Source: Candidatus Coatesbacteria bacterium (GTDB taxonomy: Bacteria > JAFGND01). From it: DNA of 52,955 nucleotides. Below the pieces are notes generated by a model. That model was not told the DNA's origin and did not search any database. It saw only the letters and a program-made list of their open reading frames with translations. Every line of letters begins with the position of its first letter. Within the stretch, counting starts at the first letter, position 1. Location of the stretch: contig JAFGND010000026.1 in NCBI GenBank assembly GCA_016927185.1, positions 1 to 52,955 of the forward strand, written 5' to 3'. Shown here in pieces: positions 9 through 33,771 of the stretch. Both the position numbers and the translations under genes were made by a program.

Positions 9-3000
9 ATGAAAGAAGATTCTGGATTGGAAATTCCTTCTACAGGAATAGATATAGGTTCTCTTTTCCTAAAAGCTATTCAGACTGATAAAGCAGGAAA
101 TATAACCTACTATTCATGCATTCCAACTGAAGGACAACCAATCGAAGCACTAAAAAAAATCCTGCTGGATGATAAATTCATATTCCCTTCACACTTAGCA
201 CTTTGTGGCTCCCAGGCAGAATTCATAGCACAGATAGTCAACATAGAAACTGTTAATGACAAACAAGCTGAGATACTTGGTATTAAATCCTTATTCAAGG
301 AAAAAATATTCAATATAATTAATATTGGAGGAGCAAGTGTATCACTTATACAGTTGGATGAAAAGGGAGATTTCCTTGATTACTCAAGTAATTCCTTGTG
401 CGCAGCAGGTACAGGATCTTTTCTTGATCAACAGGCAGCTAGATTAGGATTAACTTATAACAATATGAAGAAACTAGTTATAGACAAGAATCCTCCTTCT
501 ATCGCAAGCAGATGTAGTGTTTTTGCAAAAAGTGATCTTATTCATAGACAACAGGAAGGCTTCAGTAAGGAATCTTTATGGTCTGGACTTTGTAAAAGTC
601 TCACCAGGACATTTCTGGGTACTCTACTAAGAGGAAGACCTCTTAATAATCTGACAGCCATTACAGGAGGGGTTTCACAAAATCCACAAGTTATTTATTG
701 GCTTAAAGATACATACGGAGACTATATAAAAACTCATCCATTAAGCCATTTTGCTGCTGCTCTTGGAGTATCCTTTCTTTCTAAAAATATATGTACTGAC
801 AAACAGATCCTTCTTGATAAACTGAACAAAGCTTCTTTAAAAAATAGATCATCATTTCTAAGACCTCCACTTGTTCTCAAGAAAACCAGATATCCTGATT
901 TTACAGTAGAGAAATCATATATTGATAAGTACAACAATGAGGTTAGAATAACCAAAGTCATGTCAGGAAAAATAGATTGTTATCTAGGAATAGATATTGG
1001 TTCTACCAGCACAAAACTTGTTCTCATAGACCAGTATGCAAATGTTATATTAGATATTTATAGAAAAACAGCTGGAGAACCAATAAAAGCTATCAAATAT
1101 CTTTTTGAAGCCATTGTTGATGTCTTTAAAAGCAACTCTTTGACAGTTAATATAAAAGGGGTAGCAACAACAGGTAGTGGCAGAAAAATGATAGGGCAGA
1201 TAATAGGAGCTGATTTGATACAGAATGAAATTTCTGCCCATCTTGCAGGAGCTTTGAGTGTTGATAAAACTGTAGATACAATATTTGAAATAGGAGGACA
1301 GGATAGCAAGTATATACTTACTAATAATGGAGTTATCAAGCAAAGCAACATGAATTATGTATGTGCAGCAGGAACAGGATCTTTTGTTGAAGAACAGGCT
1401 GCAAGACTTGGTTTTAAACTGGAAGAAATAGGAGACGTTGTAATGGGTATTGCACCTCCTATTACATCAGACAGATGTACAGTCTTCATGCAAAGTGATG
1501 TCGTAAGATTACTTCAACTAGGCTATACAAGAGAAGAATGTATGGCAGCAGTTCTTTACAGCGTTTTCAGAAATTATCTTAACAAAGTAGTTGGAAACAG
1601 GCAATACAATAGAAACAGGATTTTTTTTCAGGGAGCAACAGCAAGAAACAAGGGACTGGTTGCAGCACTAGAAAATCTGCTTAACGTTGAGGTAGTGGTT
1701 TCACCTTACTGTCATGTTCTGGGAGCCATGGGGGCTGCTCTTTCCGTCAAGAGCATTATGGAAACTAGAAGCGAAAAAACAAGCTTTCTTGGTTTCTCTC
1801 TCGCAGATAAGGAAATTTCATTATCAAGCGAAATCTGCAAGCTTTGCTCAAATAATTGTACAATTACATTTGCCAACATCGAAGGAATGGATAAAAAGCC
1901 ATCATGGGGATACCTTTGTGGAAGAGATCCAGACGAAAACAAGATGAAAATCAATTCAAATTTTCAGAGTTTTCAAAAATTCTCTGCTCCTGTTAACAAA
2001 ACAATAAAAGGGAAAAAGAAAACAATAGGTTTTCCAAGAGCGCTTCTTTATTACAGCTGGTATCCTTTGTGGCAAGAGTTTTTCAAATCACTGGATCTTA
2101 ATGTTATTCTTTCCCCCAGGACAAATACCGAAATTATTACAAAAGGAGCAGAATTGGCAGGTGCAGAATTCTGTTTTCCAATCAAGATATCATTTGGTCA
2201 TGCATCGTATTTAGTAGATAGGAACGATATCGATTTTACAATAATACCTCACATGATTTCGGACAAGAAAAATCCATGCACAACAAACTCGTTTTTCTGT
2301 CCATTGGTACAAAGTCAGCCTTCAACAGCAAAAGCTACTTTAAGCCTTCATCATTCGTCTATAGACAAGATTCTATCACCTGTCATAGATTTCAGGTTTG
2401 GAGAAAAAAGACAGGTTGAAGAATTATCTCTTTCGCTTGAAAAACTGGAAATCAGCAAAAATGAACTACTGAAAGCATGGCATAATGCAATTCAAGCTCA
2501 GAAATTACATACAGAGAATGTAAAAAAGCAAGGTGAGAACCTTATTCGTGAATTGCAATCCTGTGGAAAGAAAGCCTTTGTTATAATGGGAAGACCATAT
2601 AATACACTTGATCAGGGTGCATGTCTGGGACTTCCTCAGAAGATATCTGAACTAGGACTTCCAGTTATACCAATGGGATTGCTTCCATATGAAATAAATG
2701 ACCTGCCAAAAGATTTTTTCAATATGTATTGGTCTTATGGTCAGCATATAATTGCTGCAACAAAGTATATTTCGGAAAGAAAGAATCTCTTCCCTATTTA
2801 TTTCACTAATTTCAGCTGCGGACCTGACAGTTTCCTTATATCTTTTGTAGAGGAAATGATGGGAAACAAGCCCTTGCTTACTATCGAGTTAGATGAACAT
2901 GGTGGCGATGCTGGTTATATGACAAGGATTGAATCGTTCTATGATGTAGTCAAGAACTTCAATGAAGAACCGAAACCTGTTCCTTTCTATATTCCCAGAG

Positions 3001-4172
3001 TGACTCCTGAAGAGCTGAAAGGCAGGACAATATTTGTTCCACCTATGCATGTAGCTGGTACAAGGCTTTTTGCAGCTGGTTTTGCAAGATTCGGTATGAA
3101 ATCCATTCCAATTGAAACAGAAACATATTCCGACCTTGAAGAAGGCAGAAAGCATAGTAGAGGTGGAGAATGTCTGCCTTGCGCAACAACACTTGGAAGT
3201 CTGATAAATTGTGCAAAAAAGGTTAGTAAAGGGGAAAAATACGCTTTCTTTATGCCTAGTGCAGATGGACCTTGCAGATTTGGGCAATACAATGTTTTCC
3301 ATAGAAGAGTTCTAGACAAACTTGGTTTTGTAGATTTAAAGATTCTCTCTCCCTCAGCAGGAAATTCATATCAAGGACTAAGTCAATCCATGAGGCAATT
3401 TCTATGGAAAGCAATGTTAGCGGCAGATATAGTTTATAAATTCAGATTGAAAACTGCTCCATACGAAAAGGAGAAAGGATCTTCAGAGAGTTTATTCAAA
3501 GAATCTCTTGGGTTTCTGGAGAAAGAGATAAAGGGAAAAGGAAGAATAAGAGAATCTTTAACTGAAATAATGAAAAGTTTCATTGCCTTGCCTAAAATGA
3601 ATATTCCTCCAAAACCTCTTGTTGGTATTGTCGGGGAAATATATGTCAGATGTAATCAGTTCTCTAATGACAGACTTGTTGAATCTATAGAGAAATATGG
3701 TGGAGAAGCCTGGGTATCACCTATTGGTGAATGGGTCTTATATACTGCCTATATGCAGGAATGGCAAGCCAAGCACAAGGAATCTTTGCTGAGTGGAGTC
3801 CTTGTAAAGTCAATGCTAAAGAATTTTTTCCTGCATAAATATGAAAAGGAATACTATAAATCGGTGGAACCACTTCTACATGACAGATTTGAACCTGATG
3901 TTGCAGATATAGTTGAAACTGGTTCAAAATATATACCGAGGAACTTTTATGGTGAATCAATATTGACTCTTGGAAGAGCTGCTCTTTTCAAGAATGATGG
4001 TGCAAAAATGATAGTAAATGTTGCTCCTTTTACATGCATGCCTGGATTGCTTACAAGTGCTTTAATGCAGAAAATACAGATTGAATATGATATTCCTATA
4101 GTCAGTATGTTCTATGACGGAGAATCAGGCTTGAATGAAAAACTGAAAATCTATCTCGAAAATATCTCCTGA
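9..4172 (+). CDS. Fused acyl-CoA dehydratase activase / DUF2229 reductase protein (two BcrA/BcrD/HgdC-type ATPase domains plus two reductase-like domains); PlsA-PlsR/Ger-like architecture
   Basis: Two ASKHA ATPase repeats (GIDIGSLFLK...CAAGTGSFLDQQA...RCSVFA; GIDIGSTSTK...EIGGQDSK...CAAGTGSFVEEQA...RCTVFM), a CKLCSNNC linker, DUF2229-like IGFPRAL...CFPIK, then NFSCGPD, ELDEHG, GPCRFGQY, VGIVGEIYVR and PFTCMPG. Confidence 0.9.
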   Translation: MKEDSGLEIPSTGIDIGSLFLKAIQTDKAGNITYYSCIPTEGQPIEALKKILLDDKFIFPSHLALCGSQAEFIAQIVNIETVNDKQAEILGIKSLFKEKIFNIINIGGASVSLIQLDEKGDFLDYSSNSLCAAGTGSFLDQQAARLGLTYNNMKKLVIDKNPPSIASRCSVFAKSDLIHRQQEGFSKESLWSGLCKSLTRTFLGTLLRGRPLNNLTAITGGVSQNPQVIYWLKDTYGDYIKTHPLSHFAAALGVSFLSKNICTDKQILLDKLNKASLKNRSSFLRPPLVLKKTRYPDFTVEKSYIDKYNNEVRITKVMSGKIDCYLGIDIGSTSTKLVLIDQYANVILDIYRKTAGEPIKAIKYLFEAIVDVFKSNSLTVNIKGVATTGSGRKMIGQIIGADLIQNEISAHLAGALSVDKTVDTIFEIGGQDSKYILTNNGVIKQSNMNYVCAAGTGSFVEEQAARLGFKLEEIGDVVMGIAPPITSDRCTVFMQSDVVRLLQLGYTREECMAAVLYSVFRNYLNKVVGNRQYNRNRIFFQGATARNKGLVAALENLLNVEVVVSPYCHVLGAMGAALSVKSIMETRSEKTSFLGFSLADKEISLSSEICKLCSNNCTITFANIEGMDKKPSWGYLCGRDPDENKMKINSNFQSFQKFSAPVNKTIKGKKKTIGFPRALLYYSWYPLWQEFFKSLDLNVILSPRTNTEIITKGAELAGAEFCFPIKISFGHASYLVDRNDIDFTIIPHMISDKKNPCTTNSFFCPLVQSQPSTAKATLSLHHSSIDKILSPVIDFRFGEKRQVEELSLSLEKLEISKNELLKAWHNAIQAQKLHTENVKKQGENLIRELQSCGKKAFVIMGRPYNTLDQGACLGLPQKISELGLPVIPMGLLPYEINDLPKDFFNMYWSYGQHIIAATKYISERKNLFPIYFTNFSCGPDSFLISFVEEMMGNKPLLTIELDEHGGDAGYMTRIESFYDVVKNFNEEPKPVPFYIPRVTPEELKGRTIFVPPMHVAGTRLFAAGFARFGMKSIPIETETYSDLEEGRKHSRGGECLPCATTLGSLINCAKKVSKGEKYAFFMPSADGPCRFGQYNVFHRRVLDKLGFVDLKILSPSAGNSYQGLSQSMRQFLWKAMLAADIVYKFRLKTAPYEKEKGSSESLFKESLGFLEKEIKGKGRIRESLTEIMKSFIALPKMNIPPKPLVGIVGEIYVRCNQFSNDRLVESIEKYGGEAWVSPIGEWVLYTAYMQEWQAKHKESLLSGVLVKSMLKNFFLHKYEKEYYKSVEPLLHDRFEPDVADIVETGSKYIPRNFYGESILTLGRAALFKNDGAKMIVNVAPFTCMPGLLTSALMQKIQIEYDIPIVSMFYDGESGLNEKLKIYLENIS

Positions 4173-4173
4173 A

Positions 4174-5061
4174 ATGCAGAAAAATATTGATAGAATTAAT
4201 GAAATCGCTAAGAGATTACCTAACAAAGAGACTTCAATAACAATCGCAGAAAGAGCATTTTATCTTGAACAGGAATATGGAGACAATATTGATACTCTTT
4301 TTGCATATGGAAGTCTGGTATTCGGTAAACCCAGGAAGAAATCAATTCCAGATTTTCTTGTAATAATCAAGGATATAGTAGTCTTCCATAAAATGAATGA
4401 AGATTTCTATGCAAGTGGATTAACGATACCAAGCAATTCAGATGAACAGATAAAACTTAATGAATTGTGGCCAAACTTCTATAATCTTGAATCTCCATAT
4501 GGAGAAATGAAAGCTGGAGTGATGAGCAAGGAATATTATCTTAATGCCATCTACAAAGACAATATGTTTATTCAGGGCAGGATACAAAAACCTCTTGGGA
4601 TTCTTTGGAGCAGCAGGGAAACAGAGGAAGCTCTGCTTTTTGCAAGAAGAAAAGGTGCTCTTCATGCTCTTAATCTTCTTCCTGTGTCTTTTTCATTCAG
4701 GGAATTTGCAGAAAAATTATCTTCACTCAGCTATTTGTCTGAAATCAGACCTGAAAATATCAATCGCAAAATAAAGGATATTGTGGAAACTGGATATAGC
4801 CAGTTTGAATCCATATATAAACCTATATTGAATGAGGTTGACTATATCAAATATATTGGTGAGGAATATAAAGATACAAGATCTCATGAAGAAAAAGAAA
4901 AAGCGAGAAATGAAACACTTGACTTCCAGAAGAAACAAAAATGGGCATGGAAAAGCATTAAAAGGATATTTCAGAACGCAATCAATTATAAACACCCCCT
5001 TAATTATATTGTAGATAAAATCAAGGGAGAAATCAACAAAACACTCATAGATAAAGAATAA
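4174..5061 (+). CDS. Tam41/Mmp37-like phosphatidate cytidylyltransferase (nucleotidyltransferase fold)
   Basis: FAYGS...PDFLV NTase motif followed, in Tam41 order, by KAGVMS, GRIQKP, ALNLLP, LSY.SEIRPE and F.SIYKPIL; starts 1 nt after the upstream stop. Confidence 0.75.
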   Translation: MQKNIDRINEIAKRLPNKETSITIAERAFYLEQEYGDNIDTLFAYGSLVFGKPRKKSIPDFLVIIKDIVVFHKMNEDFYASGLTIPSNSDEQIKLNELWPNFYNLESPYGEMKAGVMSKEYYLNAIYKDNMFIQGRIQKPLGILWSSRETEEALLFARRKGALHALNLLPVSFSFREFAEKLSSLSYLSEIRPENINRKIKDIVETGYSQFESIYKPILNEVDYIKYIGEEYKDTRSHEEKEKARNETLDFQKKQKWAWKSIKRIFQNAINYKHPLNYIVDKIKGEINKTLIDKE

Positions 5062-5150: not shown

Positions 5151-5165
5151 ATGACAATTTGTCAT
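5151..5165. promoter_or_regulatory. Perfect inverted repeat ATGACAA-T-TTGTCAT; candidate operator or RNA hairpin
   Basis: 7-1-7 palindrome ending 4 nt before the hrcA ATG; a weaker copy GAC-N5-GTC lies at 5132-5142. Confidence 0.55.
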
Positions 5166-30815: not shown

Positions 30816-31526
30816 ATGAGAAAAAGGCATTCTATTAAACCCAATGAAAGCAGAGGGACGATTTATTTAATTGCAACCCCCATAGGCAATCTTAATGATA
30901 TCTCCTACAGGATGGTACAAGTATTAAAAAAAGTAGATATAGTAGCAGCTGAAGACACAAGAACAGCAAGAAAGCTTTTCCATCACATTGGTTTGCAGAA
31001 TATGCAAATTCGTTCATATTATATTGGTAATGAAGACAGAGAAACAGAAAATCTTATTGATCTAGCAAGACAGGGAATGAATATCGCCCTGATTACAGAA
31101 AGCGGTACACCATGTATAAGTGATCCAGGTTTCCTGCTTGTTAGAGAAGCATGGAAATATGGTATCAAGCTGATTCCCATACCTGGACCATCTGCAGTTC
31201 AATTAGCATTAATAGTAAGCGGTTTCCCATCGAATTCTTACACCTTCTTAGGCTTCTTGCCTTCCAAGAGCACCCAAAGAAGAAAGCTGATTGAGTCGTT
31301 AAGAAATTCAACAATATCAACTGTCGTATTTGAAAGTGTTCATAGAATCCAGGCTACTCTTGGCGATTTTCAGGAAATTCTTCCAGACAGAGAGATTTTC
31401 ATAGCAAGAGAGCTGACAAAGGAATTCGAGACTTTTTATAAAGGGATTGCCATGAACATTCTGGAGGAATTGGTTACAAGAAAAGAGTTAAAAGGGGAAT
31501 TTACATTGGTGATTAAGGGTGCCTAG
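30816..31526 (+). CDS. rsmI: 16S rRNA C1402 2'-O-methyltransferase
   Basis: IATPIGNL.DIS.R, AEDTR, SGTPCISDPG, ARELTK, KGEF. Confidence 0.96.
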   Translation: MRKRHSIKPNESRGTIYLIATPIGNLNDISYRMVQVLKKVDIVAAEDTRTARKLFHHIGLQNMQIRSYYIGNEDRETENLIDLARQGMNIALITESGTPCISDPGFLLVREAWKYGIKLIPIPGPSAVQLALIVSGFPSNSYTFLGFLPSKSTQRRKLIESLRNSTISTVVFESVHRIQATLGDFQEILPDREIFIARELTKEFETFYKGIAMNILEELVTRKELKGEFTLVIKGA

Positions 31527-32151
31527 TTTACTAACTCAATTACTTAAAGAGAAAATTAACAAGATTCTCTCTCCACTCAGTTATATACTTCAAAAAGTTA
31601 AAATTACTCCTAACATGTTATCTTTGTTCGGATTGGTAGTGAATATTATCTCTGCAGTAGCAATACTCAATGGAAAACTTGTGCTAGGTGGTTTCCTGCT
31701 TCTGTTTGCAGGTTTTTTTGATCTGCTTGATGGTGCCATGGCAAGATCTACAAAGCAAACAACCAGATTTGGAGCAATACTTGATTCTACTCTGGATAGA
31801 TATAGTGAATTATTTACCTTATGCGCTTTAACATGGTACTTTTTCATGAAAAACGATGCTTCGCTTTTATTAGCTTGCTTGATTTCCATTGTTGGCAGTT
31901 TGATGATAAGTTATATAAAAGCTAGAGGAGAAGGATTAGGTTTCAATTGCACTGTAGGAATAATGACAAGACCAGAAAGAGTGGTCGTCCTTTTAACCAT
32001 CTTGATTCTGAATTCTCTGCATCCTCAGATTATTTCAATAGGAATCTGGTTTGTTGCAATCGCTTCCAATATAACTGCTATTCACAGGCTTCTTTATTTA
32101 CGGAAACAAGATAAAATCAATACTAAAGATGACAAGGAAAATTCTGCATGA
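31519..32151 (+). CDS. CDP-alcohol phosphatidyltransferase, PI(P)-synthase/archaetidylinositol-P synthase-like clade
   Basis: TPN, DLLDGAMAR...FGAILDSTLDRYSE, SYIKARGEGLG...GIMTRPER. Confidence 0.88.
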   Translation: MPSLLTQLLKEKINKILSPLSYILQKVKITPNMLSLFGLVVNIISAVAILNGKLVLGGFLLLFAGFFDLLDGAMARSTKQTTRFGAILDSTLDRYSELFTLCALTWYFFMKNDASLLLACLISIVGSLMISYIKARGEGLGFNCTVGIMTRPERVVVLLTILILNSLHPQIISIGIWFVAIASNITAIHRLLYLRKQDKINTKDDKENSA

Positions 32152-32777
32152 AGAGAGATCTTTTCATAACTTTTGAAGGAATAGAAGGAAGTGGAAAGAC
32201 AACCCAGGTTCATATTTTGAAAAATAAACTACAGAAAGCTGGTTTTACAGTAGTCCAAACAAGAGAACCTGGAGGAACTCCCCTTGGAGAAAAAATAAGA
32301 CAGTTACTTCTTGATCCCTCAAATACTGATATAAAACCATTAACTGAATTGCTGCTTTATATGGCAAGCAGAGCTCAGCATTACAAGGAGTTGATTGTTC
32401 CTGCCTTAGAAAGAGGTGAAATAGTGATTTCTGATAGATTTCTCGATGCTTCTGTTGCTTATCAGGGAGCTGGAAGGCAAATTAAAATTGAATGGATAAA
32501 AACTCTTAATGATATCTGCCTGGAAGGAAACAAGCCTGATGTAACATTCATTCTTGATCTGGATATTGAAGAGAGCAGGAAAAGGCTTCTCGGTAGGGAT
32601 TTGTTTCCTGACAGATTGGAAAGTGAAGGCAATACTTTTTTCCATCTTGTCAGGGAATACTATCTTGATCTTGCAACATCTGGAGAAAAAAGATTCAAGC
32701 TTATAAATGCTTCAAAAAATATGGATTTGGTTTCAGAAGAAATATGGGATATTATAAAGGGATATATAAATGTCTAA
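32148..32777 (+). CDS. tmk: Thymidylate kinase
   Basis: FEGIEGSGKTT, TREPGG, DRF.DAS.AYQG. Confidence 0.97.
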   Translation: MKRDLFITFEGIEGSGKTTQVHILKNKLQKAGFTVVQTREPGGTPLGEKIRQLLLDPSNTDIKPLTELLLYMASRAQHYKELIVPALERGEIVISDRFLDASVAYQGAGRQIKIEWIKTLNDICLEGNKPDVTFILDLDIEESRKRLLGRDLFPDRLESEGNTFFHLVREYYLDLATSGEKRFKLINASKNMDLVSEEIWDIIKGYINV

Positions 32778-33771
32778 ATTCTGTATAATAGGAGCAGGAA
32801 GCTGGGCAACTGCACTGGCTATTGCACTACTTGATAACAATCATGAAATTACACTATGGGAATTCAGAAAGGATTATTGCAGGTTCTTGCAGCAAAACAG
32901 AATACATCCGCAAATACTTCCAGGGATAATAATCCCGGAGAAAATCGAGATTTTAGATAATCTTGAGCTTGCTGTAAAAAACAAAGACATATTGATTATC
33001 TGCACCCCATCTCATTCTGTTCAGGAAGTATTGAAACAAGTAAAAAAACTCTATAATAATCAACCTTTGATATGTGCAACAAAAGGTTTATCAGAGACTG
33101 ATGCTTTAAGAATGAGTGAAGTTGCAGCAAAAATCCTGGGAGATGGAATTCTCGATTACTATATAGTGCTCTCCGGTCCATCTCATGCTGAGGAAGTAGC
33201 AGTAAGAATTCCAACAGCTGTTGTTATAGCAGGAAAGAATAATTCACTTTTATTAGATATACAGAAGAAAATCATGACGAATTTTTTAAGGATTTATACA
33301 AGTAATGATTTGACTGGAGTAGAACTGGCTGGTTCTTTGAAGAATATTATAGCACTTGCTTCTGGCATACTAGATGGTCTAAAATTGGGAGATAATACCA
33401 AAGGAGCATTAATGACAAGAGGATTGGCAGAGATATCAAGGCTCGGTTGCTCTATGGGTGCTAATCCTTTGACTTTTGCAGGTCTAGCTGGAATAGGAGA
33501 TTTGATAACAACATGCATTTCAAAGCATTCTAGAAACAGGAATGCAGGAGAAAGGATAGGAAGAGGGGAAAAACTGAGTGAGATAATTGCATCCAGCATA
33601 ATGGTAATAGAAGGAGTCAGAACAACAAAAGCAGCTCGAATTCTTTCTATAAAAGCAGACATCGAAATGCCTATTGCTGATATGATGCATAGGGTCTTAT
33701 TCGAGGATTTATCTCCGGGAAAAGCAATCTCAGAATTGATGACCAGAGCTGCTAAGCCCGAATGGGATTAG
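32770..33771 (+). CDS. gpsA: NAD(P)H-dependent glycerol-3-phosphate dehydrogenase
   Basis: GAGSWATA, SGPSHAEEV, LKNIIA, GDLITTC.S.HSRN. Confidence 0.97.
   Translation: MSKFCIIGAGSWATALAIALLDNNHEITLWEFRKDYCRFLQQNRIHPQILPGIIIPEKIEILDNLELAVKNKDILIICTPSHSVQEVLKQVKKLYNNQPLICATKGLSETDALRMSEVAAKILGDGILDYYIVLSGPSHAEEVAVRIPTAVVIAGKNNSLLLDIQKKIMTNFLRIYTSNDLTGVELAGSLKNIIALASGILDGLKLGDNTKGALMTRGLAEISRLGCSMGANPLTFAGLAGIGDLITTCISKHSRNRNAGERIGRGEKLSEIIASSIMVIEGVRTTKAARILSIKADIEMPIADMMHRVLFEDLSPGKAISELMTRAAKPEWD

Follow-up and report, generated by a model that had tools for sequence, protein, structure and literature searches.

The window analysed here, that is, the whole 52,955-nt stretch of DNA from a metagenome-assembled genome (MAG) of a Candidatus Coatesbacteria bacterium (contig JAFGND010000026.1), opens 8 nt upstream of two closely spaced genes on the forward strand, which we call ORF1 and ORF2. 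The genome carrying the window (G000) amounts to 2.99 Mb in 109 contigs and is 93.4% complete; in a comparison among 40 genomes, its nearest relation was placed at the level of 'same domain'. ORF1 (9-4172, + strand) encodes a 1387-aa single-chain fusion of the PlsA/Ger type, with two activase domains and two HAD-like lobes ("BBD"), and its 5' end is complete, with an in-frame TAA at 6-8 followed by the ATG at position 9. ORF2 (4174-5061, + strand) encodes a 295-aa Tam41-type nucleotidyltransferase (NTase), the probable sole CDP-diacylglycerol (CDP-DAG) synthase of G000. Their junction (4170-4176, + strand) comprises the TGA stop codon of ORF1 (4170-4172), a 1-nt spacer and the ATG of ORF2 (4174-4176). 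One contig from an independent biogas-fermenter assembly of a different study (X2) covers positions 4098-4276 with 0 differences, which rules out an artefact of a single-sample assembly and agrees with the 1-nt spacing noticed in an earlier reading of the letters alone (hereafter the sequence-only reading). The metagenomes holding this stretch came from sediment and from a biogas fermenter, an occurrence that fits an oxygen-sensitive enzyme. A scan for promoters and terminators between ORF1 and ORF2 gave no signal better than that of shuffled sequence, and a complex prediction for ORF1 residues 672-1387 with ORF2 residues 12-295, run with alignments, scored 0.01.

Pfam and NCBIfam placed two activase domains of the BcrAD_BadFG/CoA_E_activ type in ORF1, at approximately residues 12-257 and 326-578, with PF01869 matching in two stretches (E = 5e-58) and TIGR00241 scoring 239 bits against a cut-off of 125. 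Activase domain 1 (42-779, + strand), a BcrAD/BadFG ATPase, matched benzoyl-CoA reductase (BCR) subunit D and MbdP, and its Cys131 and Cys169 were invariant in 16 relatives. Activase domain 2 (984-1742, + strand; PF01869), the better conserved ATPase of the two, matched MbdQ, the HgdC activator and HadI in the Protein Data Bank (PDB; E = 1e-25 to 1e-27), with Cys452 and Cys490 invariant in the relatives. As in HgdC, these cysteines would be the ligands of a bridging [4Fe-4S] cluster. A Cys-rich linker of the pattern CxxCxxxC...C (1836-1919, + strand; Cys610, 613, 617 and 637), invariant in the relatives and found also in the paralogue of ORF1 described below, is likely an Fe-S site. Across 16 sequences of the clade that includes ORF1 (clade A, see below), 14 Cys residues were invariant, some of which may be cluster ligands.

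A PDB sequence search with ORF1 matched the activase parts alone (MbdQ/MbdP, the HgdC activator and HadI). Reductase lobe 1 (2022-2969, + strand; residues 672-987) carries DUF2229 (PF09989) at residues 672-889 (188.6 bits against a cut-off of 29.4, E = 1.5e-55) and has a HAD/BCR β-subunit-like fold. The structure predicted for residues 672-1387 from a 20-row alignment (pLDDT 86.3, pTM 0.86) found its best Foldseek matches in the benzoyl-CoA reductase BzdNO, 2-hydroxyisocaproyl-CoA dehydratase, the 3-methylbenzoyl-CoA reductase MbdON and a double-cubane cluster protein (DCCP), and both the α and β chains of 3o3m and 9gai were matched. With VIA-align, the structural matches listed fell on model residues 1-316, which correspond to lobe 1 (Z 10.3-13.8), led by 3o3n_B (Z 13.8 over 263 aligned residues), DCCP (12.9) and BzdO (12.3). 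A profile-profile comparison with hhalign showed reductase lobe 2 (2970-4169, + strand; residues 988-1387) to be homologous to lobe 1 over 281 columns (probability 77.7%, E = 1.9e-5), the Cys-containing motifs being in register. A faint match to the HGD-D family PF06050 (E = 0.017) covered residues ~930-980 at the end of lobe 1, and an ESM Atlas search returned generic DUF2229 clusters and nothing else. Judging from the Act1/Act2/Red1/Red2 description in PMC12838417 and from a preprint (10.64898/2026.06.23.733905), lobe 2 would be the equivalent of PlsR in the two-gene systems. Because lobe 1 is HAD/BCR-like by its model and lobe 2 is homologous to it, the layout of ORF1 is activase-activase-reductase-reductase, as the sequence-only reading had it; the likeness to the PlsA/PlsR and Ger layout that it proposed holds as well, at the level of domains and fold.

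ORF2 matched the Pfam family Tam41_Mmp37 (PF09139) with 74.9 bits against a cut-off of 24, over profile positions 9-233 of 322, and the same profile found one Tam41 gene in the whole of G000 (74.3 bits); NCBIfam held no model matching ORF2. Its sequence matches in the PDB were Tam41 of Schizosaccharomyces pombe (6ig2, E = 4.5e-8) and a bacterial Tam41 (7ecd, E = 8.9e-5), with 21-24% identity to the solved Tam41 structures. Its YGS, Asp, QKP and LSY..R motifs lined up with those of S. pombe Tam41, the last of them reading LSYxxExRPE in ORF2 versus LSYLGDIR in the yeast. Invariant in 15 sequences were Y45-G46-S47, D60, K113, R136 and K139 (QKP), S186-Y187 and R192. D60, the single invariant Asp, fits the report that Tam41 retains just one of the three acidic residues of NTases (PMC11646218). 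The ORF2 model (pLDDT 87.8) resembles 6ig2 and 7ecd in having an NTase domain followed by a helical (winged-helix) domain, with C-terminal helices at residues 238-256, 259-270 and 275-294 in a Lys/Arg-rich region. All top five Foldseek matches were Tam41 structures (7ecd, 6ig2/6ig4; TM 0.59-0.68, E = 3e-11 to 2e-9), and the next neighbours were aminoglycoside NTases (TM ~0.3). Profile, PDB matches, fold and motif alignment all bear out the Tam41 motifs that had been read from the sequence.

The subfamily of ORF2 is rare, with three proteins in a 90%-clustered collection and eight representatives at E < 1e-30 among 1.84 billion. It was present in 2 of 121 genomes sampled from the phylum of G042, another carrier, and in 5 of 81 sampled from its class; NCBI titles of the loci name Planctomycetota and Candidatus Brocadiia. 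In a distant clade of Tam41 homologues (22-29% identity to ORF2), FAD-dependent oxidoreductase genes flank the Tam41 gene in L012, L041, L042 and L044, and cytochrome P450 genes do so in L012, L042, L043 and L044. This clade probably has another role; in its one checked genome, the Polyangia MAG G045, CdsA is present. A more distant Tam41-like cluster (P0019) includes a protein named from a MAG of Candidatus Aenigmarchaeota, a DPANN archaeon.

The CdsA route to CDP-DAG is regarded as universal and essential in bacteria. Tam41 is known from mitochondria, and the role of its few bacterial homologues is unclear. In G000, PF01148 (CdsA) gave no match, and the CDS signature motif was absent from its 7012 six-frame ORFs; CarS was found in none of the five genomes examined, G000 included. 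CDP-alcohol phosphatidyltransferases, which require a CDP-activated lipid, were present in all five, with six matches in G000, one of them in the window. PF01148 was missing from all seven genomes carrying the ORF2 subfamily at ≥34% identity (G000, G041-G044, G169 and G076) and present in all four with distant Tam41 homologues alone (G001, G018, G024 and G045). Within the class sample, CdsA was detected in 0 of 5 Tam41-positive versus 74 of 76 Tam41-negative genomes (Fisher p = 8e-7, related genomes not being independent). The Tam41 subfamily and CdsA are mutually exclusive across the seven genomes and within the 81-genome class sample. Since the absence repeats in all seven subfamily genomes, we rejected a gap in one incomplete MAG as its explanation. 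As the subfamily genomes lack CdsA, and the five examined further lack CarS yet carry CDP-alcohol phosphatidyltransferases, ORF2 is most likely the sole CDP-DAG synthase of the cell and not a dedicated ether-lipid accessory. Yeast Tam41p is reported to restore phospholipid synthesis in CdsA-depleted Escherichia coli (PMC6362211). CDP-DAG formation is also reported for a bacterial Tam41, the protein of 7ecd (Kimura et al., 2022, as cited in PMC11646218). A literature search on cdsA absence found nothing relevant, subscription papers and supplements lying beyond its reach.

Locus scans with an alignment of the eight subfamily members yielded 37 loci (5 genome and 32 metagenome loci). Six were set aside as belonging to the distant clade or a long branch, and 24 of the 31 left were informative, with at least 500 nt upstream. 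On the basis of tblastn rather than ORF calls, an ORF1 orthologue (43-53% identity) lay directly upstream of the ORF2 orthologue at 7 of the 24 informative loci (L014, L018, L019, L020, L021, L026 and L030), or 6 of 18 after near-identical loci were collapsed. On the tree of Tam41-like proteins, this adjacency requires at least five changes, so that it is distributed across the subfamily rather than restricted to a single tip clade. At the orthologous junctions, the genes overlap by ATGA in L019 and L020, by 32 nt in L018 and by 20 nt in L026, and they are separated by 26 nt in L014 and by 42 nt in L030. In L025, a different, divergent fusion (25% identity, Pfam-confirmed) lies convergently downstream of the Tam41-like gene. 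The pairing of ORF1 with ORF2 is genuine: it recurs, and the two genes are tightly coupled. In the neighbourhood survey of bacterial Tam41 genes that the sequence-only reading had suggested as a check, the adjacency recurred at five or more places in the tree and was absent from the majority of informative loci. No account of Tam41 together with Planctomycet- or plsA was found in the literature, subscription papers and supplements being beyond the search, and Tam41 with 'ether lipid' returned mitochondrial and other eukaryote-focused papers alone; the pairing has no published mention in that search, in line with the sequence-only reading, which was aware of none. Separately, the Tam41-like protein P0011 and the clade-A fusion P0161 both come from a 6142-bp contig of the European Nucleotide Archive (ENA), which suggests one more adjacent pair.

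ORF1 has 2385 homologues, the paralogue likewise thousands, and the best identities of the two are 48% for ORF1 and 48-49% overall. Named relatives of ORF1 come from Brocadiia, Aminicenantia, Acidobacteriota, Myxococcota, Nitrospirae and Syntrophales, and their public names read merely 'acyl-CoA dehydratase activase'. G000 holds two PlsA/Ger-type fusions, ORF1 and the 36%-identical paralogue (C79:25685-30070 = L007:5686-10071, - strand; probable start Met57, about 1405 aa). The paralogue, a member of clade B, has named relatives in Syntrophaceae, Zixibacteria, Desulfobacterota and Thermodesulfobacteriota, and its neighbours (proS, a DNA methylase gene, cheR and a transaldolase gene) show no lipid link. 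The two fusions might serve different positions or lipid classes.

FastTree phylogenies split the reductase fusions into clades A and B with local support of 99-100, and ORF1 fell into subclade A1 (16 rows, support 99-100). Among its members are all three of the Tam41-adjacent fusions that the tree covered, together with the unlinked fusions of the Tam41-positive genomes G042-G044. Fourteen fusions from class members with CdsA, along with those of G200 and G219, make up the separate clade C, and two further fusions from class members with CdsA belong to clade B. Rows L056 (G166) and L067 (G169) of the second tree, wrong-frame translations with end branches of 2.6-2.8, were disregarded; the fusion of G169 is 52% identical to ORF1. 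The A1 reductase type and the Tam41 subfamily largely go together, adjacent or not. This is compatible with a module passed on as one piece, by descent or by transfer, and equally with plain vertical descent in one group. Clade-A-type proteins may already be placed in the Ger trees of PMC13159169 or of the supplements to a sponge preprint. A divergent, longer fusion type of 1554-1556 aa, 25-28% identical to ORF1, was also observed at L025:8884-13554 (- strand) and G076:C168:4015-7821, the latter genome being Tam41-positive and CdsA-less.

Several characterised systems resemble the two proteins. PlsA/PlsR of Clostridium perfringens and the single-gene PlsA of lactic acid bacteria are reported to make plasmalogens, also in E. 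coli (PMC12838417), and Ger of Thermotoga maritima and Desulfatibacillum alkenivorans to form 1-alkyl glycerol ethers in anaerobic E. coli (PMC13159169); these are the only functions tested for the fused architecture in the two sources. Ger homologues, defined operationally by two PF01869 domains plus PF09989 (PMC13159169; preprint 10.64898/2026.06.23.733905), are reported in many phyla, including the Planctomycetes-Verrucomicrobia-Chlamydiae (PVC) and Fibrobacteres-Chlorobi-Bacteroidetes (FCB) groups (PMC13159169), and one is described in 'Ca. Kuenenia' (PMC8788747). Both characterised Ger proteins (T. maritima Tmari_0479 and D. alkenivorans SHJ90043) come from anaerobes and have about 1400 aa (PMC13159169). 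Like ORF1, they are single chains with two PF01869 domains, PF09989 and more HAD-like sequence; unlike them, ORF1 lies, in this comparison by description, in a subclade whose named members are Brocadiia-type MAG proteins. Neither of the two characterised Ger genes is known to have a Tam41 neighbour. PlsA/PlsR of C. perfringens (CPE1194/1195) shares the Act1-Act2-Red1-Red2 order and is described as a HAD-family Fe-S enzyme, and PlsA of Enterococcus faecalis, Lactococcus cremoris and Bifidobacterium longum is a fused single gene like ORF1, the facultative-anaerobe pattern (PMC12838417). ORF1 has one PF09989 match, a pattern that the sponge preprint calls Ger-like.

As for ORF2, it shares with Tam41/TAMM41 and the 7ecd protein the Pfam family, the NTase plus helical-domain fold, the YGS/single-Asp/QKP/LSY..R motifs and, as modelled, basic C-terminal helices. 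It differs in that its subfamily stands, at part of the loci, in a putative operon with a PlsA/Ger-type reductase, and in that it occurs in CdsA-less genomes, whereas mitochondria-bearing cells also keep a CDS enzyme. CdsA (PF01148) catalyses the reaction proposed for ORF2, in which phosphatidic acid (PA) and CTP give CDP-DAG and PPi, but it has an unrelated fold, being an integral membrane protein with the motif KDx5PGHGGx2DRxD (PMC7018664). ORF2 lacks this motif and is predicted to be soluble or peripheral. In E. coli, CdsA is also reported to make the MPIase precursor, which Tam41p cannot do (PMC6362211).

The explanation that we favour, and hold to be probable with some reserve, is that ORF1 and ORF2 form a lipid operon in which ORF2 is a CDP-DAG synthase replacing CdsA and ORF1 an ester reductase of the PlsA/Ger type, the two being a co-inherited module. 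The genes would be co-transcribed as a two-gene membrane-lipid operon and are probably translationally coupled. ORF2 would be a peripheral, non-CdsA CTP:phosphatidate cytidylyltransferase of the Tam41 type that took over, in this lineage, the normally universal bacterial step from PA and CTP to CDP-DAG, and its product would feed the CDP-alcohol phosphatidyltransferases of G000 and thereby bulk phospholipid synthesis. ORF1 would belong to the Fe-S radical enzymes of the PlsA/PlsR-Ger family, as a single chain that is driven by ATP and sensitive to oxygen. Low-potential electrons would pass from its two activase domains into the two HAD-like lobes, and its most likely reaction is the reduction of the acyl ester at sn-1 of glycerolipids, which would give an alkyl or alkenyl ether. 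Inherited together, the pair would constitute a lipid module of subclade A1 and the Tam41 subfamily. We infer the enzymatic activities, the transcription as an operon and any hand-over of substrate between ORF1 and ORF2. In the lipid unit envisaged by the sequence-only reading, what survives is the recurrent, tightly coupled pair, and what finds no support as stated is ORF2 as a dedicated CDP-activator of the ether substrate or product.

A number of observations weigh against this explanation. The pair is not adjacent at 17 of the 24 informative loci; G042-G044 carry the reductase and Tam41-like genes on different contigs, the 1.5 kb on either side of the Tam41-like gene in G169 and G076 contain no reductase fusion, and none was detected anywhere in G041, which has a Tam41-like gene. 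The fusion of G076 is just 28% identical to ORF1. The gene found most often beside the Tam41-like gene, immediately following it at 10 loci, encodes an unrelated ABC-F ATPase. As to CdsA, the five Tam41-positive genomes of the class may represent one lineage and hence one event, and each single absence in G041-G044, G169 and G076 is weak because the completeness of these genomes is unreported. The Tam41-negative genomes G200 and G219, both with a clade-C fusion, also gave no CdsA match, reflecting either incompleteness or another route. The activities of both proteins are deduced from sequence and models. ORF1 was likened to the characterised enzymes (C. perfringens PlsA/PlsR, E. faecalis PlsA and the Ger of T. 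maritima and D. alkenivorans) by domain layout and description, the trees resolving the internal clades A, B and C; the clade-B paralogue, rather than ORF1, may be closer to the characterised D. alkenivorans Ger.

Published data on relatives argue against ORF2 handling ether intermediates, as it would in a first alternative, close to what the sequence-only reading had proposed, in which ORF2 is a dedicated partner in ether formation. ORF1 would act early, on PA or a precursor, and ORF2 would CDP-activate 1-alkyl(enyl)-2-acyl-glycerol-3-phosphate or supply a CDP-DAG substrate, so that the pair would define the step at which this clade works. The closeness of the genes, 1 nt apart here and overlapping by ATGA at other loci, speaks for it, as do the recurrence over deep divergence (35-41% Tam41 identity), the association of A1 reductases with Tam41-positive genomes while CdsA-positive genomes of the class have another reductase clade, and the second, unrelated reductase type adjoining a Tam41-like gene in L025. 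The loss of CdsA would also be understandable if CdsA handled ether-PA poorly, which we infer only. However, the class sample has the DUF2229 fusion in 77 of 81 genomes and CdsA in 74 of 81, so that most genomes of the class, and nearly all fusion carriers, have CdsA and no Tam41; T. maritima is likewise described as having both cdsA and Ger (PMC8788747). In E. coli, Ger and PlsA produce ether lipids although no Tam41 is present (PMC13159169, PMC12838417), and clostridial PA, CDP-DAG and phosphatidylserine (PS) are reported to be essentially free of alkenyl species, implying that ether formation there is late (PMC9702350). Given the E. coli expression, the clostridial lipids and the class sample, a Tam41-type enzyme is not needed by the reductase family generally, and the CdsA-less genomes point to a general CDP-DAG synthase. 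The pair is moreover unlinked at most loci. For subclade A1 itself this case is weaker, the family-wide data weighing against a dedicated partner there with less force. On balance we regard a dedicated role of ORF2 as unlikely.

A bolder version of the module is rather improbable in our judgement. In it, the A1 reductase and Tam41 would be a transferable two-gene module that alters the opening steps of phospholipid synthesis, in which ether bonds are made at the level of PA and a soluble, peripheral enzyme of the ORF2 type accepts ether-PA as well as diacyl-PA, rendering CdsA dispensable and leading to its loss in the lineage of G000 and in a group of Planctomycetota. If true, it would mean a bacterial ether-lipid route entering at PA and not at finished phospholipids, and the natural replacement of an 'essential' bacterial gene by a mitochondrial enzyme type.

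Comparably doubtful is the view that the adjacency has no functional meaning, ORF2 being a housekeeping gene and the gene order a remnant of an ancestral arrangement in related lineages. The unlinked loci and genomes listed above (17 of 24 loci, G042-G044, G169 and G076) accord with it, as do the ABC-F neighbour kept in 10 loci, the hrcA-dnaK-dnaJ genes adjoining the pair here, and the rough congruence of the reductase and Tam41-like trees, as expected under vertical co-inheritance. Yet the pair stays adjacent at 35-50% protein identity and in at least five separate branches, with overlapping stop and start codons, and the pairing with a different reductase type in L025 is independent. That one assignment is functionally wrong, with ORF1 a CoA-ester dehydratase/reductase or other radical enzyme, or with ORF2 acting on a substrate other than phosphatidate while an unrecognised enzyme makes CDP-DAG, is very improbable: the names of ORF1 relatives, the CoA esters on which its structural neighbours act, the divergence of ORF2 from solved Tam41s in identity and in its LSY motif, and the distant Tam41 homologues that coexist with CdsA beside P450/FAD-oxidoreductase genes, so that the family is not single-purpose, would allow it, but the tested functions of the fused architecture are those of PlsA/PlsR and Ger (PMC13159169, PMC12838417), the CDP-alcohol phosphatidyltransferases need a CDP-DAG source for which no other candidate was found in the five genomes, and the CdsA/Tam41 exclusion is clean.

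Under the favoured explanation, in which ORF2 replaces CdsA, the Tam41/CdsA exclusion would represent a non-orthologous displacement at the point where phospholipid synthesis has its central branching, directly testable with the existing E. coli cdsA tools. In these lineages, pathway reconstructions requiring cdsA would mistakenly report phospholipid synthesis as incomplete. The recurrent putative operon that includes a PlsA/Ger-type reductase could offer a practical way to ask which lipid intermediate these still little-understood radical enzymes act on, and may be relevant to the reading of ether-lipid biomarkers from anoxic sediments and digesters.

The surroundings of the Tam41-like genes were varied. 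The loci with the ABC-F gene are L009, L010, L016, L017, L020, L021, L024, L027, L032 and L033, where it often overlaps the Tam41-like gene; the protein has two ABC_tran domains together with ABC_tran_Xtn and CTD, and Memo-AMMECR1 fusion genes lie further downstream in six loci. Other neighbours of Tam41-like genes encode aldehyde dehydrogenase, pyruvate:ferredoxin oxidoreductase (PFOR), UDP-glucose dehydrogenase and aldo-keto reductase.

Elsewhere in the window, a run of overlapping genes on the + strand (30816-33771) encodes a TP_methylase-family protein (30816-31526), a CDP-alcohol phosphatidyltransferase (31519-32151), a thymidylate kinase (32148-32777) and the NAD-dependent glycerol-3-phosphate dehydrogenase GpsA (32770-33771), which places a CDP-DAG consumer and a glycerol-3-phosphate supplier in the same window as ORF1 and ORF2. 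On another contig of G000 (C79 = L007:45-1448), a protein carries a Por_Secre_tail sorting domain of the type IX secretion system (T9SS), and Lpt genes are also present. With T9SS presumably linked to the FCB group, these genes suggest that G000 is a diderm of FCB type. Downstream of ORF2, a 108-nt AT-rich gap precedes hrcA, dnaK and dnaJ. The consensus of the canonical CIRCE element had 0 matches in the whole window at up to three mismatches. A perfect 7-1-7 palindrome, ATGACAA-T-TTGTCAT, is present at 5151-5165, 4 nt before the hrcA start (5170), and may be a variant HrcA operator.

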